A stretch of DNA of 64,000 nt, from contig JAGYJL010000001.1 of assembly GCA_018402015.1 (NCBI GenBank), forward strand, positions 50,166-114,165, in the 5' to 3' direction. Shown one piece after another: positions 1 through 11,401 of this stretch. Each line of letters opens with the position of its first letter. The first letter of the stretch is position 1. The notes under the pieces are model-generated. The model saw nothing but the letters and a program-made list of their open reading frames with translations. It had not been told where the DNA came from and searched no databases. Position numbers and translations under genes: made by a program. The stretch is from Flavobacteriales bacterium. Lineage in GTDB: Bacteria; Bacteroidota; Bacteroidia; UBA10329.

Positions 1-53
1 AGCGGTCTCGCACAGAGATTCACCAAACCGATGAATGACGTATCTTTGAGAGT

Positions 54-290
54 ATGAAAGTCACGCTCGATATTGATACCAGCAGTCTGGACGCCATTGC
101 CCTACTGAACTACATCCGCTCTTTGAAGTATGTGAACATTCTGGAAGAAGGGACGGAAGAGCTGACCGTGGTACAGAAAGCTGCTATTGACAAAGGCTTG
201 AAAAGCCTGGAAAAAGGTGCTTTGAGCCATGATGAGGCCATGAACTCCGCCCGTTCTCGCTTCCCACATCTCTTCGAAAAACGGGCATGA
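54..290 (+). CDS. putative antitoxin partner of the downstream RelE/ParE toxin (78 aa)
   Basis: Small ORF whose stop overlaps the toxin start (ATGA at 287-290). No family motif recognised, so the call rests on position and size only. Confidence 0.5.
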   Translation: MKVTLDIDTSSLDAIALLNYIRSLKYVNILEEGTEELTVVQKAAIDKGLKSLEKGALSHDEAMNSARSRFPHLFEKRA

Positions 291-577
291 TCGTTTGGTC
301 GCCTAAGGCCTCTGAAGACTATGAGGAGAATATCGACTTCCTCCTACACCGTTGGACGGAGAAAGAAGCGCTTCATTTCATTGAAGTGACGGACTCCGTT
401 CTGAAGATCATTGATCAAGCACCCGCTACTTTCCGTTCCACCGGCTATAAAGACATTCGAGCAGTTGTCATCGTTTCGCAGATAACCCTATATTATCACC
501 CATTGAAAAATGGTGACGTGGCGCTTATCCGATTTTGGAACAACCATCAGGATCCGTCAAAACTCAAAATCGGTTGA
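287..577 (+). CDS. type II toxin, RelE/ParE family (96 aa)
   Basis: 96 aa. The N-terminus (WSPKASEDYEENIDFL) and C-terminus (ITLYYHPLKNGDVALIRFWNNHQDP) fit the ParE/RelE 'plasmid stabilisation' fold pattern. Translationally coupled to the upstream small ORF. Confidence 0.75.
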   Translation: MIVWSPKASEDYEENIDFLLHRWTEKEALHFIEVTDSVLKIIDQAPATFRSTGYKDIRAVVIVSQITLYYHPLKNGDVALIRFWNNHQDPSKLKIG

Positions 578-716
578 TGTTTACAAAAGTCGAAACGTGT
601 ACGATAGTTGGTTCGTTTTCCGCCACTGTACACTGAGCGCACTTCCACGGACTTGAGAAATTCGTTAAGCACAAAAAAGAACGTTTTTGCCATGTTGGGT
701 TTTCGCCATTTATCCA

Positions 717-1094
717 CCGATTGCGCACGCTTGCAACACGCGCCTTGCCACAGGCCACATGGCACCGTGCAATCCTAGCAAATAACCTTACGGATATCAC
801 TTGTAAGCCTACAAGTACCTGCCCTATGGCTAACTCCACTGCTTGTAAGACTGCAATTGGTACACTTACACGTAGGTGTATGCCTTGCAGCAATACAAAT
901 TAAGTACCCACATGTAGGTCTATCGGTTGTAGCCTTACAACTGGCTCACAGAACGTTATCTGTATGAGTTGTAAGCTTACAATTGATACAGATAAGCGTA
1001 GGTCTGATGGTTGCATGCTTACAACCGATATCCGTAGATCTAGGTTGGTCTTTCTGCACCTTACAATTGATATGAATATGAATTGAGCGCTCTT
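717..1094. repeat. tandem array of 42-bp units, each carrying a 14-nt palindrome TTGTAAGCYTACAA (7 strong and about 2 degenerate copies)
   Basis: Boxes start at 801, 843, 885, 927, 969, 1011 and 1053, all exactly 42 bp apart. Weaker copies lie at 759 and 721. A second box, GTAGGT, recurs in the same register at 872, 914 and 998, with CTAGGT at 1040. Confidence 0.85.
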
Positions 1095-1233
1095 ACCGCA
1101 AGCGCTGTATGCCAATGGCAGCAAGGGATACAGCGATTTTGTTAAAATTTATCAATGCATATAATACGAGGGGCTGTTGCGCGGTTATCAGTTTATATAC
1201 ACCATTTATGTTTAACCTAAAAACTTCAAGATC

Positions 1234-2205
1234 ATGGAATGGCATTATTCGAACAACCAGTTTGACAACGCAACCAAGAACAGCAACTTGCAGATGGTTA
1301 TCGTTACCAACGACCACAACGCCAAGTTGATAGAACAACAGGCCGACCCCGACATTCTGAACCTGCTTACCCGCACCACCCCCGTGCACGAGGATTTTCT
1401 TAAGAGGTACAATGATGCTAAAAGTGCCATTGCTTTCCGTAAATCGGGCACGCAGGCCGTTACCGATAAATTGGGGCTATTGCGTAGCACTTCGCTACGT
1501 AAGTGGGATGCTCAGGTGCAGGTTAACTACTTGAGTGGCAGTGTAGAATACACAGCCGTTTTTCCGAATGGGCTTACAGCTTTTCATACCAGCACCATAG
1601 ACCAAACAGTGGTCATGCTGAAGGGTTTGGCCGACCGAATGGGCAGCTTTGCCCCACTGTCCGCGGTAGCCGCAGAGGTAAACACGTTCTACACCGAACT
1701 GAAGGACCTACGGGATGCGCAGCAGGGCAAGGAACAATTGGTTGGACAAACGGCTACATTGCTTGAAGAGTCTCGTAAAAAACTGGCCGCCATGATGTAC
1801 GGTAACCTGGGCCTGTTAATGGACAAGTATGCTACTGCACCAGACAATATTGCCAACTTTTGGGAAGTACAATTGCTGCAGCGTGGAGCCACTAAGGGCA
1901 AGGATGAACCCGAGCCCGAAGAATTCAGCGGCACGGTGGCGGCCAATTCTACCGTAAATATTACTTCTAATATTGCGGCCGATTCTACGGTGATTCTCTC
2001 CAATACAGGGTCGGTAACATTGGTATTCTGTACAGCTGCAGATGGCACGATAGCATGTGGTGTAGAGGGGCTGTCTCTTGCCCCCGGGCAAGTTTTACAG
2101 GCCAGCGGGGCAGAACTGAACGGTGGTGGCTCCTTTTTAAATGTTACCAATAACGACCCTGCCACTGAGGGTGCTTACAACATAGAGATTCAGTTGGTCC
2201 AGTAA
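1234..2205 (+). CDS. hypothetical protein (323 aa), no signal peptide, helical N-half and beta-rich C-half
   Basis: Long clean ORF with no family recognised. Visibly GC-richer than its neighbours: two 60-nt samples I counted were 57% GC versus 43% in the next gene. Confidence 0.6.
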   Translation: MEWHYSNNQFDNATKNSNLQMVIVTNDHNAKLIEQQADPDILNLLTRTTPVHEDFLKRYNDAKSAIAFRKSGTQAVTDKLGLLRSTSLRKWDAQVQVNYLSGSVEYTAVFPNGLTAFHTSTIDQTVVMLKGLADRMGSFAPLSAVAAEVNTFYTELKDLRDAQQGKEQLVGQTATLLEESRKKLAAMMYGNLGLLMDKYATAPDNIANFWEVQLLQRGATKGKDEPEPEEFSGTVAANSTVNITSNIAADSTVILSNTGSVTLVFCTAADGTIACGVEGLSLAPGQVLQASGAELNGGGSFLNVTNNDPATEGAYNIEIQLVQ

Positions 2206-2229
2206 GCTTCTTTGGCCATAAAAGGCATG

Positions 2230-3699
2230 TTACTTGGTCTTTGTGGCCAATTTCCGCTCCAACCAACCATTATAATTCACCAACTCGGCATCTTCACCAC
2301 GTGGAGATGTCGTTTTTGTAAACAGCTTAATGCGATCTTTCATCTCCTCACTTCGTAGCGACATTCCTTTTAGGAACATATCAGAAATAAGGTTGAGCAG
2401 CATGGCCTCACGTACGTTTTCCTGGTTATCCAACTGTTCTTTAAAGTCTTTACGGATCTGTTTCATGCGGTAATCCAAGAAATCGGTATCGCCCAATTCC
2501 AAACGGATAAGGACCTCCAAAATGGCAATACGGAATTTGAGCGGAACGGCTGTATTCTCGAATCTTTCATGCAGATACAGTTGATTCAACCGTTTGATGG
2601 ACTCTCGGTGGTTTCCCATATCAAAATGGAAAATGGCCAAGTTCAGATACACAAAAACGATATAGAAAGGCGTTTTCTTCAGTTTCTCGTTGTGTTCCAA
2701 TGCTTCGAGTGTGGCAACGGCCTTTTCCATATCAACCTTGGAATAATTGATAACCAACGAATTGTAGTAGAAGAACAGGAACCGGTCGTAATGCAACCCG
2801 TCAAACTCCTCCATTCCCGCTTTCAGTTTTTCAGCCCAAACCAGCGATTCTTCCGTTTTATTGTTCTTGAAAAGTGCATTCACCATGTAGGTGAGCATCT
2901 GCAATTTGGTCTGATGATTAGACTTATTGAACAGTTTTTCACGCTCAAAATCGCCATAGGTCACTCGCAAGTAGTCTTCTAGATTAGGGTAATCGTGTTG
3001 CTGCAACAGGATCTGGCTTACGGCCTGATAGATCTTGAATCGCAACGCAGAGCTTCCCTTCAGTTCTTTGCTATCCGTCAATCGTTGAACCGTTTCCTGA
3101 AGCATGTCCACCACCGGATTATCGACCGGAGAGAAATTCTGAGTGATCTTCAGCTTGTACTTCACTGTGGCCAGAATATCATCTATTTGACGGATGGACT
3201 TTAGTCTGGCCTCATTTTCCTGACGCTTGAGAATGTAAGTTTCTGGGTTGATGTTGAGCATTTCCTGCGACAATCTGATGTACTCCGTGTAAATAAGGTC
3301 GAGCAACTCTAGATTCTCAAGAGCAAGTGCGCGTTTTTCTGCCTTTCCTAAAAAATGCTCGGCCAAAGAGAATAGGTTCTTAGCCATGTAATGCCTGGCC
3401 AGATTGTACAGGTTGATGGCCTGCGTCACATCCTCATCCTCAAAATGCTGCACCATCAAACTCTTACTCACATCGGATTTCAACCGATTCTTTAACCTGT
3501 AATAGGGATTCTTATTTCCATCAGGATAAAGTTTGGTACAAGCAGCATCCTCATTGAACTGTTCGCGTTCTTTCCTTATCAGGTCAAAGAGTTCAATGTC
3601 TTTACGGGGCTGATTGCTGGCTATACGAGAGGAATAAACCTTGTAAAATCGGATCTCTTCCTTATTGAGTCCTAGAATCATTTGATTGAGAGTGTCCAT
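2230..3699 (-). CDS. hypothetical helical-repeat (TPR-like) protein, 489 aa
   Basis: Clean 489-aa ORF with all-helical, Leu/Tyr/Asn-rich repeats typical of TPR-like scaffolds. No catalytic motif seen. Confidence 0.6.
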   Translation of the reverse strand: MDTLNQMILGLNKEEIRFYKVYSSRIASNQPRKDIELFDLIRKEREQFNEDAACTKLYPDGNKNPYYRLKNRLKSDVSKSLMVQHFEDEDVTQAINLYNLARHYMAKNLFSLAEHFLGKAEKRALALENLELLDLIYTEYIRLSQEMLNINPETYILKRQENEARLKSIRQIDDILATVKYKLKITQNFSPVDNPVVDMLQETVQRLTDSKELKGSSALRFKIYQAVSQILLQQHDYPNLEDYLRVTYGDFEREKLFNKSNHQTKLQMLTYMVNALFKNNKTEESLVWAEKLKAGMEEFDGLHYDRFLFFYYNSLVINYSKVDMEKAVATLEALEHNEKLKKTPFYIVFVYLNLAIFHFDMGNHRESIKRLNQLYLHERFENTAVPLKFRIAILEVLIRLELGDTDFLDYRMKQIRKDFKEQLDNQENVREAMLLNLISDMFLKGMSLRSEEMKDRIKLFTKTTSPRGEDAELVNYNGWLERKLATKTK

Positions 3700-3752
3700 T
3701 TGAGCGCGTAAGAAATATTGAAATTATGAAACGATATGTATAATCATCCAAT

Positions 3753-3760
3753 TACATTTG
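3753..3760 (+). promoter_or_regulatory. candidate Bacteroidota sigma-A -7 box (TACATTTG)
   Basis: Perfect match to TAnnTTTG, 5 nt before ATG 3766. This suggests the real start is M5 at 3778 (MKVIQKF...). No good -33 TTG seen. Confidence 0.4.
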
Positions 3761-3765
3761 AGTAA

Positions 3766-4470
3766 ATGATGCTACAGATGAAGGTTATTCAAAAATTCTT
3801 GCTTGCATTCCTGATCGGATACGTGGGTATCGTTAAGACACAAGCGCAGACCTACGAGTTGCAAATTGACAGCTTGGTTGGTATACCGGATACGATTTAC
3901 GATGGGCAAACAGTCATATTTTTCATGACCGTTTCTATGAACACACCGTTATTCTACCAAGGTGATATGTTCATTGAACTGGAATACGGTGGCAATTTGT
4001 ATCAAGTAGATTCAACGGTAGCTGCAAACCAATTCATCGGTCCGAATTCACCAAATACAATTCAAGCGTTTCATCGTTTTTCAACAGAAAACGACCTTCA
4101 GATAGGCGATAATGTGGTGGTGGTGTGGCCACGTATTGGAGACGGTGAGAATCCGATCCAGACGGTTCTGAACCCGATAACTACAACAATAACATTGGCA
4201 GAGCCAGCAGGCATTGAACAGCATACGAATTCGCGCGTATTCAAGCCTTTTATCCGTCCAAACCCAGCAATTGACCACATTCAATTCGGTCTGCACGAAA
4301 ACACGAATGTGGAGCAGTCAATTCTATACGATATGACAGGGAAGATTCTCAGCAGATCGGGAACAGAGAAACGTTTAGATGTATCTGGTCTTCCAGCCGG
4401 AATCTCTTTTTTAGATGTAATAACACGTGACGGAACCGTCTATTCTGACAAGTTGCTGATTACACACTGA
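3766..4470 (+). CDS. T9SS type A sorting-domain secreted protein (234 aa)
   Basis: N-terminal signal peptide (FLIGYVGIVKTQAQ). C-terminal roughly 80 aa reads RPNPAIDHIQF...ILYDMTGKIL...LPAGISFLDV, the Por/T9SS CTD pattern. Confidence 0.75.
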   Translation: MMLQMKVIQKFLLAFLIGYVGIVKTQAQTYELQIDSLVGIPDTIYDGQTVIFFMTVSMNTPLFYQGDMFIELEYGGNLYQVDSTVAANQFIGPNSPNTIQAFHRFSTENDLQIGDNVVVVWPRIGDGENPIQTVLNPITTTITLAEPAGIEQHTNSRVFKPFIRPNPAIDHIQFGLHENTNVEQSILYDMTGKILSRSGTEKRLDVSGLPAGISFLDVITRDGTVYSDKLLITH

Positions 4471-6874: not shown

Positions 6875-9800
6875 TCAGTGAATCTGAATCTTACGAGTAA
6901 CCAACCCTTCTAGAGTTGCAACCTGTAGGAAGTAAGTTCCACTTGCTACGTCAAGGTTAAGATCCTTACGGAAGCTGTTGTTCAATGTAACTCCTTCGTT
7001 GTAAACCTGACGGCCTGCAACATCTAGAACCACGATCTGAACGTCTGCTTCAACACCAGCTACCTCAACCACAAACTGACCGTTTGATGGGTTAGGGTAT
7101 ACTTCCATTCCTCTCTCAACTGCCTCGGCAATTGTTGTTGGGATGTCTGTGACCTGGATGGCTTCACAGTACTCCGAAGTACATCCATTCTCATCAGTAA
7201 CAGTTAAACAAACAGTATAAGGACCATCCAATGCATAAACATTTGTCGGGTCTGCAATATCAGCAGTGTTTCCATCACCGAAATCCCAAGCCCACTCTAC
7301 GATAGTGCTTGATGTAGTACTAGCATCTGTAAACGCTACAGAAAGACCAGTAGCAGCATACGTGAAGCCTGCATCTACAGTCGTTTCTGTCAAGGTAACC
7401 GTTGCATCACCTTCTTCGCCATCATAACCATCAACCTGAACAAAGTATGTTTCTCCCGGTGTCAATCCGCAAAGAACAACCTCACTGGTCAATGTTGATC
7501 CAAGAGCATCTGGGTTATCATCGTTTGCACCTTCAAGAACTGCTGTTCCTGAAACTAGATCCTGACAGCTGACCGCAGAATAAACTGCCAATTGTGTATC
7601 AAAATCAGAACCATCTGTAGATACGATCACATTACCAGAAGCTGGAGCTACAAATGAGAACCAGATCGTGTTTTCAAGTGTAAGCGAGAAGCTACACCAT
7701 CCGTCTTGAGATTGACAAGAACCGCTTACGCCTGTTCCTCCACCTGGAATAACCTCTGTACCACCTTCAACTGTTGCACCAACATTGGTGAACGGTCCGT
7801 TTGCTCCAAGAGCAAGTGGCTCAGCAGAACATGCATCATCATTCGATGGCGCTGGAGGTGGAGGCGTACATGTGATTGACAGATCGAATGTTCCTTCGTT
7901 TCCTCCTGGGCCTACGTCTGAACCGAAGTAGTCACCCACATAGATGTAGTAGTCTGTACCGACCTCCGTATCAAACGTCACCTGTGAGGTGTTACCTGTA
8001 CAGTTGGTGAAGTCATCATCGTTGTTGGCCAAGTAAGTAAGGTTACCGCAGCTTCCGGTTGCAATTACGATCTCTGTATCGAAATCGGCTGCATCGCAAG
8101 TTGAAGCGGTTACCTCATCGCCTGTTCCTGCCAGCACGTACCATACACCCTCTGACACATAAGCGGTTCCGAATGGTGCATCGTCTGCTGTTGACCCAAC
8201 CGTAGTTCCTGAAGTTGTGCTACCACAAGTTACGGCTATTGCCCCAGAACACAGGTCATTTGCTGGTCCGCAAAGCTCAACCGTAATCGGAGCTCCAGCA
8301 GCATCAAGATTTGCACAGATGCTTCCACCTCCTTGTACAAGAGAAGGAAGGACATCCAACGCACTGGTAGTACCCAATACAACACCACTCAAATCAAGTG
8401 TGGCAGGATTGTAAACCAACGTGTGGATGATGTAATCACCTTCAGCAGTAACTGTGAAATCTGGTGTTGCTGCTACTTGCTCAATAATCAAACCTGGGTT
8501 TGATGTAAGAACATATAGAACAGAATAACCAGCAGGAACTACCGGAGCAGCATTCTCTGTTGCAGAAATATCAGCAGAACCAGCATCTAGACAAACTGGG
8601 CTTGCATCTGCAGTAAGCGTTCCTGCATCAGGTGCTTCTACAGTGACAAGTCCTGTTCCTGCTACATCAAGAGATGCACAGATCGCGCCTGAACCGATTA
8701 ATCCAGCAACTCCTACTCCTGTGGTCTCTCCAAGGATAGTTGCGCCATCTGCCGGATTGAATACCAATGTATGGATGATGTAGTTACCGCCTGCTGTAAC
8801 ATCAAACGATGCAACTGCGGCCGGTGGTAGAACAACATCCAGGATATCCAAGTTCGGTGAATCGCCATCTGTCAATACATAGGCAATCTCGTATCCTGCT
8901 GGTACAGTTGGAGCAGTTCCTACTGTGGCAGAAATTGTTGCAGTTCCTCCAGTTAAACATACTGGGGTGGCATCGGCTGTTAGCGTTCCTGCATCAACAG
9001 TTGGGCAAGCACACGTAACAGAAAGCTCAAACTCACCAAACGGCACAGATGCAAACTCATCATCGAAATTACTTACGTAAATGTTATAAGTAACACCCGG
9101 CTCTCCGTAGAAGGTAACCGTAGATTGTAACCCACATTCATCATCGTTAGCAATAAGACAGGTTTGATTGGCACAATCTCCTGTGGTTACAACTAATTCA
9201 GTATCGAAGTTTGTACCTGCACCACATGTAGAAACAGTTACATCTTCTCCAGTTCCAACAAACGAATACCACACTCCGTTTCCGGCATTAAGCTCTGCGC
9301 AGTTTTCGTCAACACTTACAGTAGAGTTGTAGTTGTTTCCGAAAACAACATCTCCACAAGCAATTGGAAGAGCATCTGCACACAAATCGTTTGCTGGTGT
9401 TGCACAAGTAATGGTAAGGTCGAAATCGCCAGTTGCGGAAGAGAATCCTGTAACCCAAATTGAGTACGTTGTGCCTAAAGTACTTGTCCAAGTAAGTTCA
9501 GACTGAAGACCACAAGCATCATCATTACCACCAACACAAGTAAGTGAGCCACAAGCACCTTCATAAACAAATAACTTGGTATCGTAGCTGGATCCGCAAA
9601 GGCTAGCGGTAATATCCAGTCCTGTTCCTACTACTGTGTACCAAACACCAGGTGCTGTTGCACTGGTTGTTCCACAGAAAACTCCAGAAACCTCAGAATC
9701 TGCTGTTGCAAAAGAAGTTGATCCGGAAACTACGTCTCCACAAGCAAGGGCAATTGCATTTGCGCAATCATCGTTTGTAGGTGCTTCGCATGCAGAAGAA

Positions 9801-11401
9801 GTAATAGACAATTCGAAAGAACCACCCCCATTAAATAAATCACCAGCATTGATGTAGTAAGTAGTTCCAATCGTTGTTGCAAATCCAGAGATAAGTGAAT
9901 TTAGACCATTCGCGTCATCATTAAAATCTTCGCAAGTTGCGAGTGGAGTACAAGATGTGGTAATAGCTAAAACAGGGTCGAGATCCGAAGAAGTCATCGA
10001 AATATCATAAGCAGTACCATCACCTACAAATGAGTACCAAAGGCCATTAATTGAAGTATTGTAGTTGGCAAAGCAATCAGATTGACCAGCATCGGTAGCT
10101 GCAGAAGTTGCACCGGTTACTACGTCTCCACAAGCAAGAGCAATTGCTCCACCACAAACATCGTTGGCAGGTGCAGCGCAGGTAACATTCAACTCGTAAT
10201 TTCCTGTTCCAGAGCTAAAACCATGTACCAAAATGTAATAGGTAGTACCCGGAATAGAAGAGAAAGTCACTTCACCATCAGCGGTTCCACAACCATCATC
10301 AACACCTGTTACACACGTAAAACTTCCACAAGATCCTGTGTAAACAGAAAGCTTACTATCGTAGTCTGTGTTAGCGCACAGGCTGGCGGTAACTTCAGAG
10401 CCGTCTCCAGCAAATGAGTACCAAACGCCTGGGGCTGTGTTAGTAGTAACACACGTTCCGGCATTATCAACAGTAGCATTAACAGTAGAACCTGTTGCGG
10501 TACCACCGCATGCAATAGGAGTTGCATTTGCGCAATCATCGTTTGCAGGTGGGGTACAAGCAGAAGAAGAAAGTGCTAAATCAAACAGCATTTCATTAAA
10601 GAAATTATCTAAAACATAGACGTAGTAAGTTGCGCCAATAGTAGTAGCCGTGACTGTGGCAGAAACAGAACCAGTTCCGACTTCTAAAACATCACAAGCG
10701 CCACCGCAACTTGAAGTTACCACAATGACTGGATCAAAACCAGGAGCAGTTACATCGATAATATAATCAGTGCCATCTCCAACAAATGAATACCAAACAC
10801 CAGGAGACGCTCCAGTTAAACACGTTGGCTGGCCTGTAGCATCTGCGTTAACCGTAGTACCAGAAACCGCATCACCACAGCTTAATGCTTGTGCATCAGC
10901 ACAAAGATTATTTGCTGGTGGAGGGCAAGTAACGTTCAACTCGAAGTTACCTGTACCAGAGCTAAAGCCATGCACTAAAATGTAGTATGTAGTAGCATCA
11001 ACTGAGGTGAACGACACTTCAGATTGTGCACCACACGCATCATCGTTTCCTGTGACACAAACGAATGCACCACAAGAACCTGTGTAAACAGATAGTTTAG
11101 AGTCGTAATTCGTTCCAGTACACAAGCTTGCTGTTACATTACCACCGTTTCCTACAAATGTGTACCAAACACCAGGTGCAGTATTAGATGTAGTACAAGT
11201 TCCAGCATTATCAAGGGTTGCACCAACTGTTGTGCCTGTAGCAGTTCCGCCACACGCAATTGCAATTGCATTGGCGCAATCATCGTTTGCTGGCCCTCCT
11301 CCACCTGGTGCTGGCTGTGCTGTTACAGACCCTACTGCGGACAGACAGACAATTGCCATCCCAAGAGCCCACGTTTTTGTTTTTGAATATAATGTTTTCA
11401 T
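6875..11401 (-). CDS. giant T9SS cargo protein: eight Cys-rich 'ANDxC' modules, two roughly 120-aa repeats, a PKD domain and a type A CTD (1508 aa)
   Basis: Has a signal peptide. Repeated motif is PANDxCxxA..CG...GVWY.F.G.G....C....D..L.V..G.CG...C...NDD.CG...Y.I.V.GF....G.F.L...C. PKD motif WDFGDGNTA. CTD reads VYPNPSNGQFVVEV...GTYFLQV. Confidence 0.85.
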   Translation of the reverse strand: MKTLYSKTKTWALGMAIVCLSAVGSVTAQPAPGGGGPANDDCANAIAIACGGTATGTTVGATLDNAGTCTTSNTAPGVWYTFVGNGGNVTASLCTGTNYDSKLSVYTGSCGAFVCVTGNDDACGAQSEVSFTSVDATTYYILVHGFSSGTGNFELNVTCPPPANNLCADAQALSCGDAVSGTTVNADATGQPTCLTGASPGVWYSFVGDGTDYIIDVTAPGFDPVIVVTSSCGGACDVLEVGTGSVSATVTATTIGATYYVYVLDNFFNEMLFDLALSSSACTPPANDDCANATPIACGGTATGSTVNATVDNAGTCVTTNTAPGVWYSFAGDGSEVTASLCANTDYDSKLSVYTGSCGSFTCVTGVDDGCGTADGEVTFSSIPGTTYYILVHGFSSGTGNYELNVTCAAPANDVCGGAIALACGDVVTGATSAATDAGQSDCFANYNTSINGLWYSFVGDGTAYDISMTSSDLDPVLAITTSCTPLATCEDFNDDANGLNSLISGFATTIGTTYYINAGDLFNGGGSFELSITSSACEAPTNDDCANAIALACGDVVSGSTSFATADSEVSGVFCGTTSATAPGVWYTVVGTGLDITASLCGSSYDTKLFVYEGACGSLTCVGGNDDACGLQSELTWTSTLGTTYSIWVTGFSSATGDFDLTITCATPANDLCADALPIACGDVVFGNNYNSTVSVDENCAELNAGNGVWYSFVGTGEDVTVSTCGAGTNFDTELVVTTGDCANQTCLIANDDECGLQSTVTFYGEPGVTYNIYVSNFDDEFASVPFGEFELSVTCACPTVDAGTLTADATPVCLTGGTATISATVGTAPTVPAGYEIAYVLTDGDSPNLDILDVVLPPAAVASFDVTAGGNYIIHTLVFNPADGATILGETTGVGVAGLIGSGAICASLDVAGTGLVTVEAPDAGTLTADASPVCLDAGSADISATENAAPVVPAGYSVLYVLTSNPGLIIEQVAATPDFTVTAEGDYIIHTLVYNPATLDLSGVVLGTTSALDVLPSLVQGGGSICANLDAAGAPITVELCGPANDLCSGAIAVTCGSTTSGTTVGSTADDAPFGTAYVSEGVWYVLAGTGDEVTASTCDAADFDTEIVIATGSCGNLTYLANNDDDFTNCTGNTSQVTFDTEVGTDYYIYVGDYFGSDVGPGGNEGTFDLSITCTPPPPAPSNDDACSAEPLALGANGPFTNVGATVEGGTEVIPGGGTGVSGSCQSQDGWCSFSLTLENTIWFSFVAPASGNVIVSTDGSDFDTQLAVYSAVSCQDLVSGTAVLEGANDDNPDALGSTLTSEVVLCGLTPGETYFVQVDGYDGEEGDATVTLTETTVDAGFTYAATGLSVAFTDASTTSSTIVEWAWDFGDGNTADIADPTNVYALDGPYTVCLTVTDENGCTSEYCEAIQVTDIPTTIAEAVERGMEVYPNPSNGQFVVEVAGVEADVQIVVLDVAGRQVYNEGVTLNNSFRKDLNLDVASGTYFLQVATLEGLVTRKIQIH

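Follow-up and report, generated by a model that had tools for sequence, protein, structure and literature searches.

A 41/42-bp-phased tandem array and the gene for an acidic coiled-coil protein form an apparently undescribed two-part module in Bacteroidota

The tandem array at positions 717-1094 of the window (the whole 64-kb stretch of DNA analysed) and the 323-aa protein gene at 1234-2205 are apparently the two parts of an undescribed module that is widespread in Bacteroidota and also occurs once in a bin labelled Ignavibacteriae. Among 48 non-redundant loci encoding relatives of the 323-aa protein, 44 possess an array upstream of the family gene, with the best upstream self-match at lag 42 in 36 loci and at lag 41 in eight. 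Between lineages, the consensus sequences of the units bear no relation to one another (median best identity 43%), and paralogues within a single genome carry different units. Conservation of the period despite this sequence turnover is strong evidence of function and of an unusual kind. A literature search on repeats of 42 bp or 42 nt in Bacteroidetes yielded no pertinent report.

The array in the window

The array is composed of nine 42-bp registers and is built around a dyad box of the form TTGYA-N4-TRCAA, with a second box offset by 29 nt from the box start. Its elements, none of which is assigned a strand, are:

717-1094, no strand: tandem array, nine 42-bp registers (717, 759, 801, and so on to 1053), units about 50% alike
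721-736, no strand: weak outlying copy TTGCGCACGCTTGCAA, 16 nt, 4 nt off register
759-772, no strand: degenerate box ATGGCACCGTGCAA, in register, three mismatches
801-814, no strand: dyad box TTGTAAGCCTACAA, exact match to TTGYA-N4-TRCAA
843-856, no strand: dyad box TTGTAAGACTGCAA, exact pattern match
885-898, no strand: dyad box TTGCAGCAATACAA, exact pattern match
927-940, no strand: dyad box TTGTAGCCTTACAA, exact pattern match
969-982, no strand: dyad box TTGTAAGCTTACAA, perfect 14-nt palindrome
1011-1024, no strand: dyad box TTGCATGCTTACAA, exact pattern match
1053-1066, no strand: degenerate final box TCTGCACCTTACAA, right arm intact
872-877, no strand: second box GTAGGT, offset 29 nt from box start
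914-919, no strand: second box GTAGGT, offset 29 nt from box start
998-1003, no strand: second box GTAGGT, offset 29 nt from box start
1040-1045, no strand: second-box variant CTAGGT, offset 29 nt from box start

The pattern TTGYA-N4-TRCAA (TTGYANNNNTRCAA) has six exact matches in the 64-kb window, all of which lie within 801-1024 at 42-bp intervals; in 100 shuffled sequences the mean is 0.51 matches and the count never exceeds 3. A self-match comparison, as proposed alongside the sequence-only reading of this DNA, gives its highest value anywhere in the window (all lags 30-60, all positions) at lag 42 near position 842, where the self-match is 0.55-0.57 against a background mean of 0.27 and standard deviation of 0.038 (lags 30-60). 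Tandem Repeats Finder does not detect the array because its units are only about 50% alike. The 42-bp-phased palindrome array described in the sequence-only reading is real and agrees with the sequence at every position, as do the in-register second boxes, whose sequence is kept across clade A genomes as (GATC)TAGGTG.

Two known repeat systems of similar appearance were rejected. A CRISPR array does not fit, given that the box is 14 nt long, the putative spacers share an in-register GTAGGT, and no cas genes are present among the scanned ORFs. In TIGR-Tas systems, a single gene for a coiled-coil protein lies beside tandemly repeated units, some 36-42 nt long, whose variable segments are consistently palindromic (PMC12045711; bioRxiv 10.64898/2026.09.09.750476), and the module resembles them in unit size, palindromic variable segments, its single coiled-coil partner and poor conservation of the array sequence. 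TIGR-Tas hosts are viruses or CPR bacteria, however, whereas the hosts here are Bacteroidota. The module also lacks a Nop domain, with no Pfam match in 88 family members and no Nop5 or Tas match by Foldseek, and it lacks box C/D enrichment: RTGATGA occurs 0 times on the plus strand and 5 times on the minus strand, against 1.1-1.5 expected, and CTGA is not enriched. Most module arrays are also free of spacers, because their units are near-identical.

Linkage of the array to one gene family

Linkage of the array to the family gene persists down to 23-26% protein identity. The array lies 5' of the gene in every locus with an upstream array, ends about 60-350 bp before the ATG, and sits upstream of a conserved promoter-like leader. 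Within most arrays the units are 85-98% identical, and the arrays span 26%-68% G+C. The only array-sized periods seen are 41, 42 and multiples of these. Upstream regions also contain a small number of short repeats (13-31 bp), and small orphan 42-bp arrays occur without the family gene.

No other gene is conserved near the family gene among the 26 loci compared. This comparison backs the fallback idea of the sequence-only reading, in which the array is paired with the orphan gene at 1234, and lends no support to its suggestion of a block comprising a toxin-antitoxin (TA) pair, the array and the gene, given that upstream neighbours differ among relatives and that the TA pair at 54-577 is absent from all other loci. 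Genes with the T9SS C-terminal sorting domain make up 16 of the 63 nearest neighbours, compared with 19 of the 108 genes farther away and 5 of the 37 ORFs of the window; a link to T9SS cargo genes was rejected, as the enrichment is weak at best.

The distribution of the period bears on whether the array is a neutral satellite, either a functionless by-product of slippage or unequal crossover or what is left of a translated repeat of 14 aa. Ongoing unequal exchange is evident from higher-order repeats (84, 126 and 168 bp), the array changes between two strains at approximately the rate of silent sites (1.85%, against 0.62% in the gene), and one reading frame contains a single stop over 721-1086. 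A neutral satellite is nevertheless very unlikely, as the same period is found in 44 of the 48 loci despite total sequence turnover and protein identity down to 23%, and degenerate arrays retain their boxes and register. The translated repeat, which the sequence-only reading had itself raised against its proposal, was rejected: stops are present in all six frames in the five clade A loci tested, and a coding repeat is excluded because 41-bp periods exist, in eight loci.

The partner protein

The protein family comprises 1,465 clusters at 50% identity, and its members are acidic proteins of about 320 aa with a pI of 4.4-5.0. The model of the 323-aa protein consists of a long helical hairpin domain followed by a C-terminal beta-sandwich. 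Exact-sequence database look-ups with the window's own proteins were empty, and the family has no match in Pfam, NCBIfam or PADLOC and no significant fold match when searched with Foldseek in the PDB (entries up to April 2026). Three individual matches were judged spurious: a PHROG 'virion structural protein' (E = 0.007) and CAMP_factor, each matched by a single member only, and EspA in the PDB (E = 0.008), which reflects weak coiled-coil similarity.

No conserved catalytic-type residues are present in an alignment of 88 family sequences, and no HTH, RHH, ParB or Rep-like domain was found in the 323-aa protein. The sequence-only reading had expected a dimeric DNA-binding protein on the array, a part of that reading which gains no support here: in the adjacent protein, the only one linked to the array, no known DNA-binding domain or fold was recognised. 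The most conserved part of the family protein is the N-terminus, which is unlike the expectation for a specificity determinant that changes with the repeat.

Elements between the array and the gene

Three elements separate the array from the gene in the window, and are listed here with the gene itself:

1103-1135, plus strand: inverted repeat GCGCTGTAT...ATACAGCG, -16 to -18 kcal/mol, z = -0.8
1140-1168, plus strand: AT-rich block TGTTAAAATTT...ATAAT, conserved and found in clade A relatives
1207-1224, plus strand: conserved leader TATGTTTAACCTAAAAAC, 10-27 nt upstream of the ATG
1234-2205, plus strand: gene for the 323-aa acidic protein, the array's sole conserved partner

Both arms of the inverted repeat are invariant across four clade A loci, and the element may be a terminator-like structure or a binding site. 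The leader agrees with TAnnTTTG, the -7 box of Bacteroidetes, at seven of its eight positions and contains a ATGTTTnAnnTAAAA-like motif that recurs across clades, suggesting that it is the promoter of the gene. A scan for sigma-70 promoters and terminators gave nothing informative. The possibility that each unit of the array is itself a Bacteroidetes promoter was rejected, as no consistent TAnnTTTG box is present on either strand. Upstream dyad sites in helical phase, the arrangement of a multi-operator autoregulatory region, are present, with the promoter position inferred from the -7-like leader.

Signatures of a possible double-stranded DNA element

Information content per unit column in clade A peaks at columns 2.5, 13, 23.5 and 34, and its 10.5-bp Fourier term is significant (p = 0.007); per-column information content also bears out the earlier claim that conservation is focused on the dyad-symmetric box. 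In a sample of 23 further arrays, which constitute 18 independent groups, the fourth harmonic (about 10.5 bp) of per-column variability is alone in excess (mean z = 1.03, t = 3.95), and the remaining nine harmonics all have |t| < 1.7. Together with the 41/42-bp period in 44 of 48 loci and the enrichment of dyads, this periodicity upholds the claim that the sites are phased on one helical face.

Clade A has strong dyad symmetry: its arm positions are complementary in 68% of cases in register and in 19-30% with a shifted partner. Across the family, the mean length of the longest inverted repeat is 5.24 bp, a value not attained by any of 300 shuffled replicates, whose average is 4.39 bp. An inverted repeat of more than 4 bp is missing in about a third of arrays, so the palindromic box of the sequence-only reading stands for clade A and fails as a universal feature of the family. 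Several genomes have their own arms at the same unit position: TTGTA/TACAA (window, L034 and L074), TTTGA/TCAAA (L002), CTTGCA/TGCAAG (L005), TCGGA/TCCGA (L009 and L075) and TTCCGA/TCGGAA (L076). In the genomes with TTGYA, positions 4 and 11 vary independently (T-A 6, C-G 5, T.G 2, C.A 6; Fisher p = 0.63), and independent variation of this kind is, judged from these sequences, half-site behaviour.

The type III toxin-antitoxin systems (ToxIN, CptIN, TenpIN and AbiQ) offer a contrasting interpretation of the same arms. In these systems, tandem repeats lie directly upstream of a single gene and keep their unit length as their sequence diverges (PMC8860590). The RNA of the repeats is cut into units there and keeps the toxin inactive. 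The module shares this layout, including same-genome paralogues with different units and no other conserved gene, and is likewise self-contained and found in varied contexts. The array could be transcribed into a repetitive structured RNA, with one hairpin and a constant single-stranded segment for each unit of about 42 nt, that binds, titrates or scaffolds the adjacent protein, as a type III-like or other ribonucleoprotein module, an alternative that is possible but somewhat less probable than a DNA element. Covariation of the arms between genomes favours an RNA, as do the hairpin-like elements between array and gene and a conserved block of about 230 nt with -7-like boxes upstream of the arrays of the Bacteroidales clade. 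The array of L068 contains two unit types with the same constant part and different stems (6-bp stem, 8-nt loop), and the stem of L023 shifts from AAAGG/CCTTT to AAAGC/GCTTT. These compensated changes suggest base pairing within one strand rather than half-site reading.

Other features of the arrays and of the protein argue against an RNA. In two independent lineages, homologous units run in the opposite direction with respect to the gene (L042 compared with L010 and L013; L047 compared with L026 and L030), and array orientation is thus independent of the gene, unlike in type III systems. The strand signature of an RNA is also absent, as the stems show no asymmetry between G:T (35) and A:C (30), and folding MFE z-scores are alike on the two strands (-3.2 and -3.0). 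The centre gap is 0-2 nt in 8 of the 22 strongest inverted repeats, indicating true palindromes rather than looped hairpins, and a constraint with a period of about 10.5 bp likewise counts against an RNA. The module protein is approximately twice the size of type III toxins, is acidic and has neither an RNase-like fold nor a conserved catalytic set; the family protein has no PADLOC or Pfam match to the ToxN/AbiQ, CptN or TenpN endoribonuclease families. Rfam has no match in positions 1-4000 of the window (E of 1 or below) or in 11 loci. A double-stranded DNA element is therefore the favoured form in which the array would act, given the four-turn period, the variability at about 10.5 bp, the dyads, the lack of strand bias and the two inverted lineages.

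A double-stranded array need not have a dedicated binder, since small bends in phase could produce a curved, wrapping or cruciform-prone element that tunes the promoter or attracts nucleoid proteins. Such structural DNA accounts for a strict period with free sequence, for orientation independence and for the upstream position. It is improbable all the same, as old degenerate arrays conserve specific boxes, the arrays range from 26% to 68% in G+C, and the constant company of one protein family is left unexplained. The units also lack a 10.5-bp periodicity of A/T or WW content, and curvature by phased A-tracts was rejected on these grounds.

Comparison with centromeres and iterons

The sequence-only reading had likened the array to a plasmid-type centromere or an iteron origin. 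The sopC centromere of the F plasmid has 12 units of 43 bp, and SopB binds the 16-bp inverted repeat that each of them contains (PMC3177203). The array in the window resembles sopC in having direct repeats of about four helical turns (42 bp compared with 43 bp), each with an inverted repeat, and in adjoining the gene of the presumed binder (PMC3177203), and a near-consensus DnaA box, TTATCCACC, is present at 709-717. Unlike the type Ia ParABS system of sopC and SopB, however, the module is chromosomal and has no ParA, ParB or plasmid, and its protein comprises an acidic coiled coil and a beta-sandwich with no HTH. Its units turn over fully while the period stays, and the array, where present, is always 5' of the gene.

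Iterons with their Rep proteins (R6K, P1 and pPS10) and the EBNA1 family of repeats have periods of about 22 or 30 bp. They share with the module helically phased direct repeats beside a cognate gene, specificity to a lineage or paralogue and, in some cases, dyad sites, whereas the module has a period of 41/42 bp and lacks a Rep-like winged-helix protein, DnaA-box enrichment and a replicon.

The genomic context of the loci points the same way. A Pfam scan of the first 22 kb, covering ORFs of 150 aa or more, found no ParA/ParB, Rep or integrase, and the loci have housekeeping genes as neighbours on chromosomal contigs that reach 738 kb. A tblastn search was empty in 72,556 plasmids and 50,697 phages, and IMG/VR contains no relative; the window array has no match in phage genomes, and phased-motif matches in IMG/VR are single pairs only, at roughly the chance level. 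DnaA-box-like 9-mers occur at 0.51 per kb near arrays and 0.37 per kb in controls, and are thus not enriched. Among the 26 loci compared, conservation is limited to the family gene. The centromere or iteron reading is largely refuted, with no partition or replication gene in the 22 kb scanned, no plasmid or phage homologue by tblastn and no DnaA-box enrichment, and it retains scarcely any probability.

Proposed mechanism

The array would be the cis-acting half of a self-contained module, the other half being the gene for the protein of about 320 aa. Each unit would provide sequence-specific, largely dyad-symmetric contact points, and all units would face one side of the helix because the period equals four helical turns. 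A lineage-specific factor could load cooperatively onto the array, immediately 5' of the promoter that belongs to the gene, and in this state control or organise the locus. The product of the adjacent gene, as a dimer or oligomer, is the most economical candidate for this factor. A module with a double-stranded DNA array, cooperatively bound by a lineage-specific factor, is put forward tentatively, with somewhat less than even confidence. The data show the physical linkage, the rule of the period, the turnover of sequence, the dyads, the helical periodicity of constraint and the freedom of orientation; from there we infer that a protein binds the array, that the binder is the neighbouring protein and that the outcome is regulation or architecture of the locus.

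A bolder proposal, which is possible but held with less assurance, is that the module constitutes a widespread, hitherto undescribed two-component system of Bacteroidota, in which a satellite-like array of free sequence and orientation, with its period fixed at 41/42 bp, co-evolves with a non-enzymatic coiled-coil and beta-sandwich protein. The protein would polymerise on the array, or on the RNA transcribed from it, with one protein unit to each repeat, giving a nucleoprotein filament of defined length. Such a filament might act in defence, insulate the locus, organise the chromosome or make expression switch-like, and would be unrelated to ParABS, Rep-iteron, type III TA and TIGR-Tas systems.

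Significance

The rule that emerges is that any sequence, repeated every 41-42 bp beside one protein family, has been kept in more than forty lineages. Degenerate arrays escape repeat finders tuned to high unit identity, and the module may have been overlooked partly because such arrays are missed and partly because assemblies often break inside arrays. The array is the first experimental handle on a protein family that is otherwise without matches. If the array acts alone, it would be a clean natural example of helical phasing as a regulatory principle. If the protein binds the array, it would represent a new DNA- or RNA-recognition fold with naturally diversified cognate sites, which would be useful for the study of specificity evolution and possibly as a source of orthogonal binding pairs.

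The array and its partner gene

The array and its surroundings in the window comprise the following features.

54-290 and 287-577: overlapping ORFs (78 and 96 aa) 5' of the array, a probable ParE-like toxin with antitoxin
709-717: TTATCCACC, directly 5' of the array, an 8/9 match to a DnaA box
717-1094: the array
801, 843, 885, 927, 969, 1011: starts of TTGYA-N4-TRCAA boxes
759 and 1053: degenerate box copies, with a further copy at 721 out of register
872, 914, 998, 1040: GTAGGT or CTAGGT, 29 nt past four box starts
1207-1224: leader ATGTTTnAnnTAAAA
1234-2205 (+): family gene, 323-aa protein
2230-3699 (-): 489-aa ORF

The box coordinates, 42-bp spacing and GTAGGT register claimed in an earlier sequence-only reading are all present in the sequence. 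In the 64-kb window all six exact matches to TTGYA-N4-TRCAA lie within the array, compared with a shuffle mean of 0.51 and no shuffle of 100 reaching six. The self-match at lag 42 (0.55) is the window-wide maximum over lags 30-60, about 7 sd over the mean; Tandem Repeats Finder (TRF) reported nothing for this array because its units are only about half alike. Compared with a near-identical strain, the array has seven substitutions, all of them outside the six exact boxes, a difference that is not significant. TTGCATTTGCGCAA-like 14-mers at 9754, 10522 and 11266 (~750-bp spacing) lie within a 1,508-aa T9SS cargo gene (6875-11401) and are probably an internal protein-domain repeat, unrelated to the array.

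Loci of relatives of the 323-aa protein, whose contigs carry L handles below, were gathered from individual homologue look-ups, 24 genome loci and 30 metagenome loci, and viral contigs yielded none. Among 48 non-redundant loci, scanned at lags 20-70 over 700 bp upstream of the family gene, the best self-match lag is 42 in 36 and 41 in eight, and the 41/42 lag is absent or weak in four. TRF finds 2-10 copies there, higher-order repeats (84, 126 or 168 bp) being common, and the linkage extends to proteins only 23-26% identical to that of the window. Between distant loci the unit sequences show no relationship (median best circular identity 43%), two modules that differ in their units coexist in some genomes, and no other conserved gene was found across 26 loci compared. 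Conservation extends to the gene, to the period and to the array's placement on the 5' side, not to the unit sequence, and the constant partner of the array, by these comparisons, is the gene at 1234-2205. The fallback proposal of the sequence-only reading, which tied the array to this gene, is thereby upheld, and a neutral satellite is effectively excluded.

The upstream ORFs are a probable type II toxin-antitoxin pair, the 96-aa ORF scoring 22.7 bits against ParE_toxin, just under the Pfam cut-off of 23. This pair is absent from all other loci, where the upstream neighbours are instead T9SS cargo proteins, guanylate cyclase or peptidases, so the suggestion that pair, array and gene move as a block did not hold. 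The 489-aa ORF has no match in Pfam or NCBIfam, and its place beside the module is conserved in just one other contig, L001, from the same species. Over 41 loci, a T9SS C-terminal sorting domain occurs in 16/63 nearest neighbours, compared with 19/108 farther genes and 5/37 window ORFs; enrichment beside the module is weak at most, since the domain is also common farther off and window-wide.

Many metagenome contigs end ~160-600 bp upstream of the gene, in or at the array (L001, L004, L006, L007, L017, L019, L062-L067, L069, L072, L073). Assemblers break at the array, which probably leads to undercounted copies and to under-representation of the module in assemblies. Orphan 42-bp arrays, with units related to those of the local module and no family gene beside them by tblastn, occur at L026 8092-8226, L056 3862-4204 and L028 11042-11232; two of the three sit at the 3' ends of convergent genes, and they may be remnants or mobile copies. 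In a Sphingobacteriales genome, dispersed 84/126/168-bp repeats (L029 1-493 and 5042-5342; L056 near 4204) join a hairpin with a 14-bp stem (AATAGGATAGGGTT..AACCCTATC) to parts of the array unit (GGCAAAAAATGTTTTTTG), which relates that unit to a REP- or MITE-like repeat family.

The 323-aa protein family

A word-indexed search returned 21 homologues of the protein, and an exhaustive HMMER search returned 1,465 cluster representatives (50% identity) at E <=1e-3, 559 of them at <=1e-30. The family is unmatched in Pfam, NCBIfam and PADLOC except for isolated below-threshold hits in single members, PHROGs gave only chance-level hits, each in a single member, and PDB sequence searches gave nothing significant. 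Confident AlphaFold models (pLDDT 87 for the whole protein, 90 for residues 1-225) predict a hairpin of two ~60-residue helices with packed shorter helices, followed by an eight-strand beta-sandwich. Foldseek matched the beta-sandwich alone, and weakly, to Ena pilins, PirA, cupins and small phage proteins; the helical domain matched nothing (best E-value 0.18). Some members lack the C-terminal domain or have it swapped for a PKD-like domain. Isoelectric points are acidic (4.4-5.0) in each of 21 proteins examined. Residues N8, L32, T73, W91, Y106, F117, G120, L142, Q163, R181, G193, N257 and N306 are invariant or near-invariant in an 88-sequence alignment, and do not look like a catalytic set.

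Double-stranded DNA or RNA

Clade A, to which the window belongs (the window, L001, L034, L002, L005, L009, L074, L075 and L076; protein identity 54-100%), has old, degenerate arrays in which two boxes are nevertheless held in register. One is dyad-symmetric with a genome-specific sequence; the other, (GATC)TAGGTG, lies ~13 nt upstream of it and is conserved in sequence across the clade A genomes.

Dyad boxes of clade A arrays
TTGYA..TRCAA: window, L034, L074
TTTGA..TCAAA: L002
CTTGCA..TGCAAG: L005
TCGGA..TCCGA: L009, L075
TTCCGA..TCGGAA: L076

Across 48 clade A units, the dyad arms are complementary at 68% of positions in register, compared with 19-30% when the partner is shifted, and four of five arm pairs show two or three Watson-Crick types. 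In the TTGYA genomes, positions 4 and 11 are independent (T-A 6, C-G 5, T.G 2, C.A 6; Fisher p = 0.63), which is the behaviour of degenerate half-sites and not of a stem. Translation into a 14-aa repeat, which the sequence-only reading had named as a refutation, is ruled out because the arrays of all five clade A loci tested have stops in each of the six frames and because 41-bp periods exist.

The only periods are 41 and 42 bp, equal to four turns of 10.25-10.5 bp. In tests on modest numbers of partly related arrays, mean information content per unit column peaks every 10.5 columns in clade A (p = 0.007, pre-specified harmonic), and in a phase-free test of 23 other arrays (18 independent groups) the fourth harmonic alone is in excess for per-column variability (mean z = 1.03, t = 3.95; other nine |t| < 1.7). 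Stems show no strand asymmetry (G:T 35 vs A:C 30), both strands fold about equally, and the centre gap is 0-2 nt in 8/22 strongest inverted repeats. In L042 (vs L010/L013) and in L047 (vs L026/L030), homologous units point the other way with respect to the gene and linker, which are otherwise collinear. The period, 10.5 periodicity, lack of strand asymmetry, small centre gaps and inversions together argue for double-stranded DNA. Centre gaps of the strongest inverted repeats are even in 20/22 arrays (~54% expected), placing the dyad axis between two base pairs. Dyad symmetry is significantly enriched family-wide (longest inverted repeat 5.24 vs 4.39 bp in shuffles; observed mean reached in 0/300 replicates), with arms of at least 6 bp in 12/33 units against 3.9 expected; it is missing from about a third of arrays, so the period and not the symmetry is the defining feature.

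An RNA partner, with the array acting as a single-stranded structure, is rather unlikely. It would fit the two unit types of L068, which carry different stems (6-bp stem, 8-nt loop) on one constant segment, a compensated stem change within the L023 array, hairpins between array and gene in several clades, and a ~230-nt conserved block with promoter-like boxes upstream of the array in a Bacteroidales clade. The module is also laid out like a type III toxin-antitoxin locus (PMC8860590), but protein type and fixed orientation are not shared; Rfam gave no family match. The Bacteroidales block (L024-L027 and L030) is non-coding and highly conserved, and contains a covarying direct repeat (ATCGA/ATCGG) as well as three TTTTTG boxes at intervals of ~85-90 nt. 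One hairpin, (GC)AGACCGTAA-ATAGG-TTACGGTCT(GC), is conserved between array and gene in L010-L013 and L040-L042; three loci have G.U pairs in its + strand, and in L023 it lies inverted on the far, upstream side of the array. A purely structural DNA element is improbable, given that compositional periodicity is absent from the units and that the linkage is specific to one gene family.

Relation to known systems

Closest to the array in architecture is sopC, where SopB binds a 16-bp inverted repeat in each of 12 units of 43 bp (PMC3177203), but every further defining feature of a partition locus fails. The first 22 kb of the window holds chromosomal housekeeping and T9SS cargo genes, tblastn searches of plasmid and phage collections returned no relative, and DnaA boxes are not enriched near arrays (33 loci), so that the match at 709-717 is probably chance. 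The centromere or iteron initially favoured is effectively excluded. IMG/VR phage contigs carry TTGCA-N4-TGCAA palindromes every 21 bp, or two helical turns (L078 7039-7094; L086 2882-2937; L096 1227-1282), which look operator- or iteron-like and are unrelated to the module. TIGR-Tas likewise has tandem, variably palindromic units beside a coiled-coil protein, but requires a Nop-domain protein, box C/D motifs and variable spacers (PMC12045711; bioRxiv 10.64898/2026.09.09.750476); the module has none of the three and was rejected as TIGR-Tas.

All readings come from sequence comparison of mostly uncultured genomes. The best-supported, held tentatively, is that the array would be a helically phased, multi-site double-stranded DNA platform for a lineage-specific factor. 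Since nothing else accompanies the array, the adjacent 323-aa protein would be the most economical choice for this factor, although its acidity and lack of a known DNA-binding fold count against it. Located 10-27 nt ahead of the ATG, the conserved leader ATGTTTnAnnTAAAA agrees with the Bacteroidetes -7 box at 7/8 positions. This consensus match suggests that a promoter of the family gene's own lies between array and gene; the array would in that case occupy roughly 120-500 bp upstream of the -7 box. As the partition, type III toxin-antitoxin and TIGR-Tas comparisons each fail in part, the module is placed among phased repeat arrays coupled to a cognate gene; there is a fair chance that it is instead a system of its own kind.
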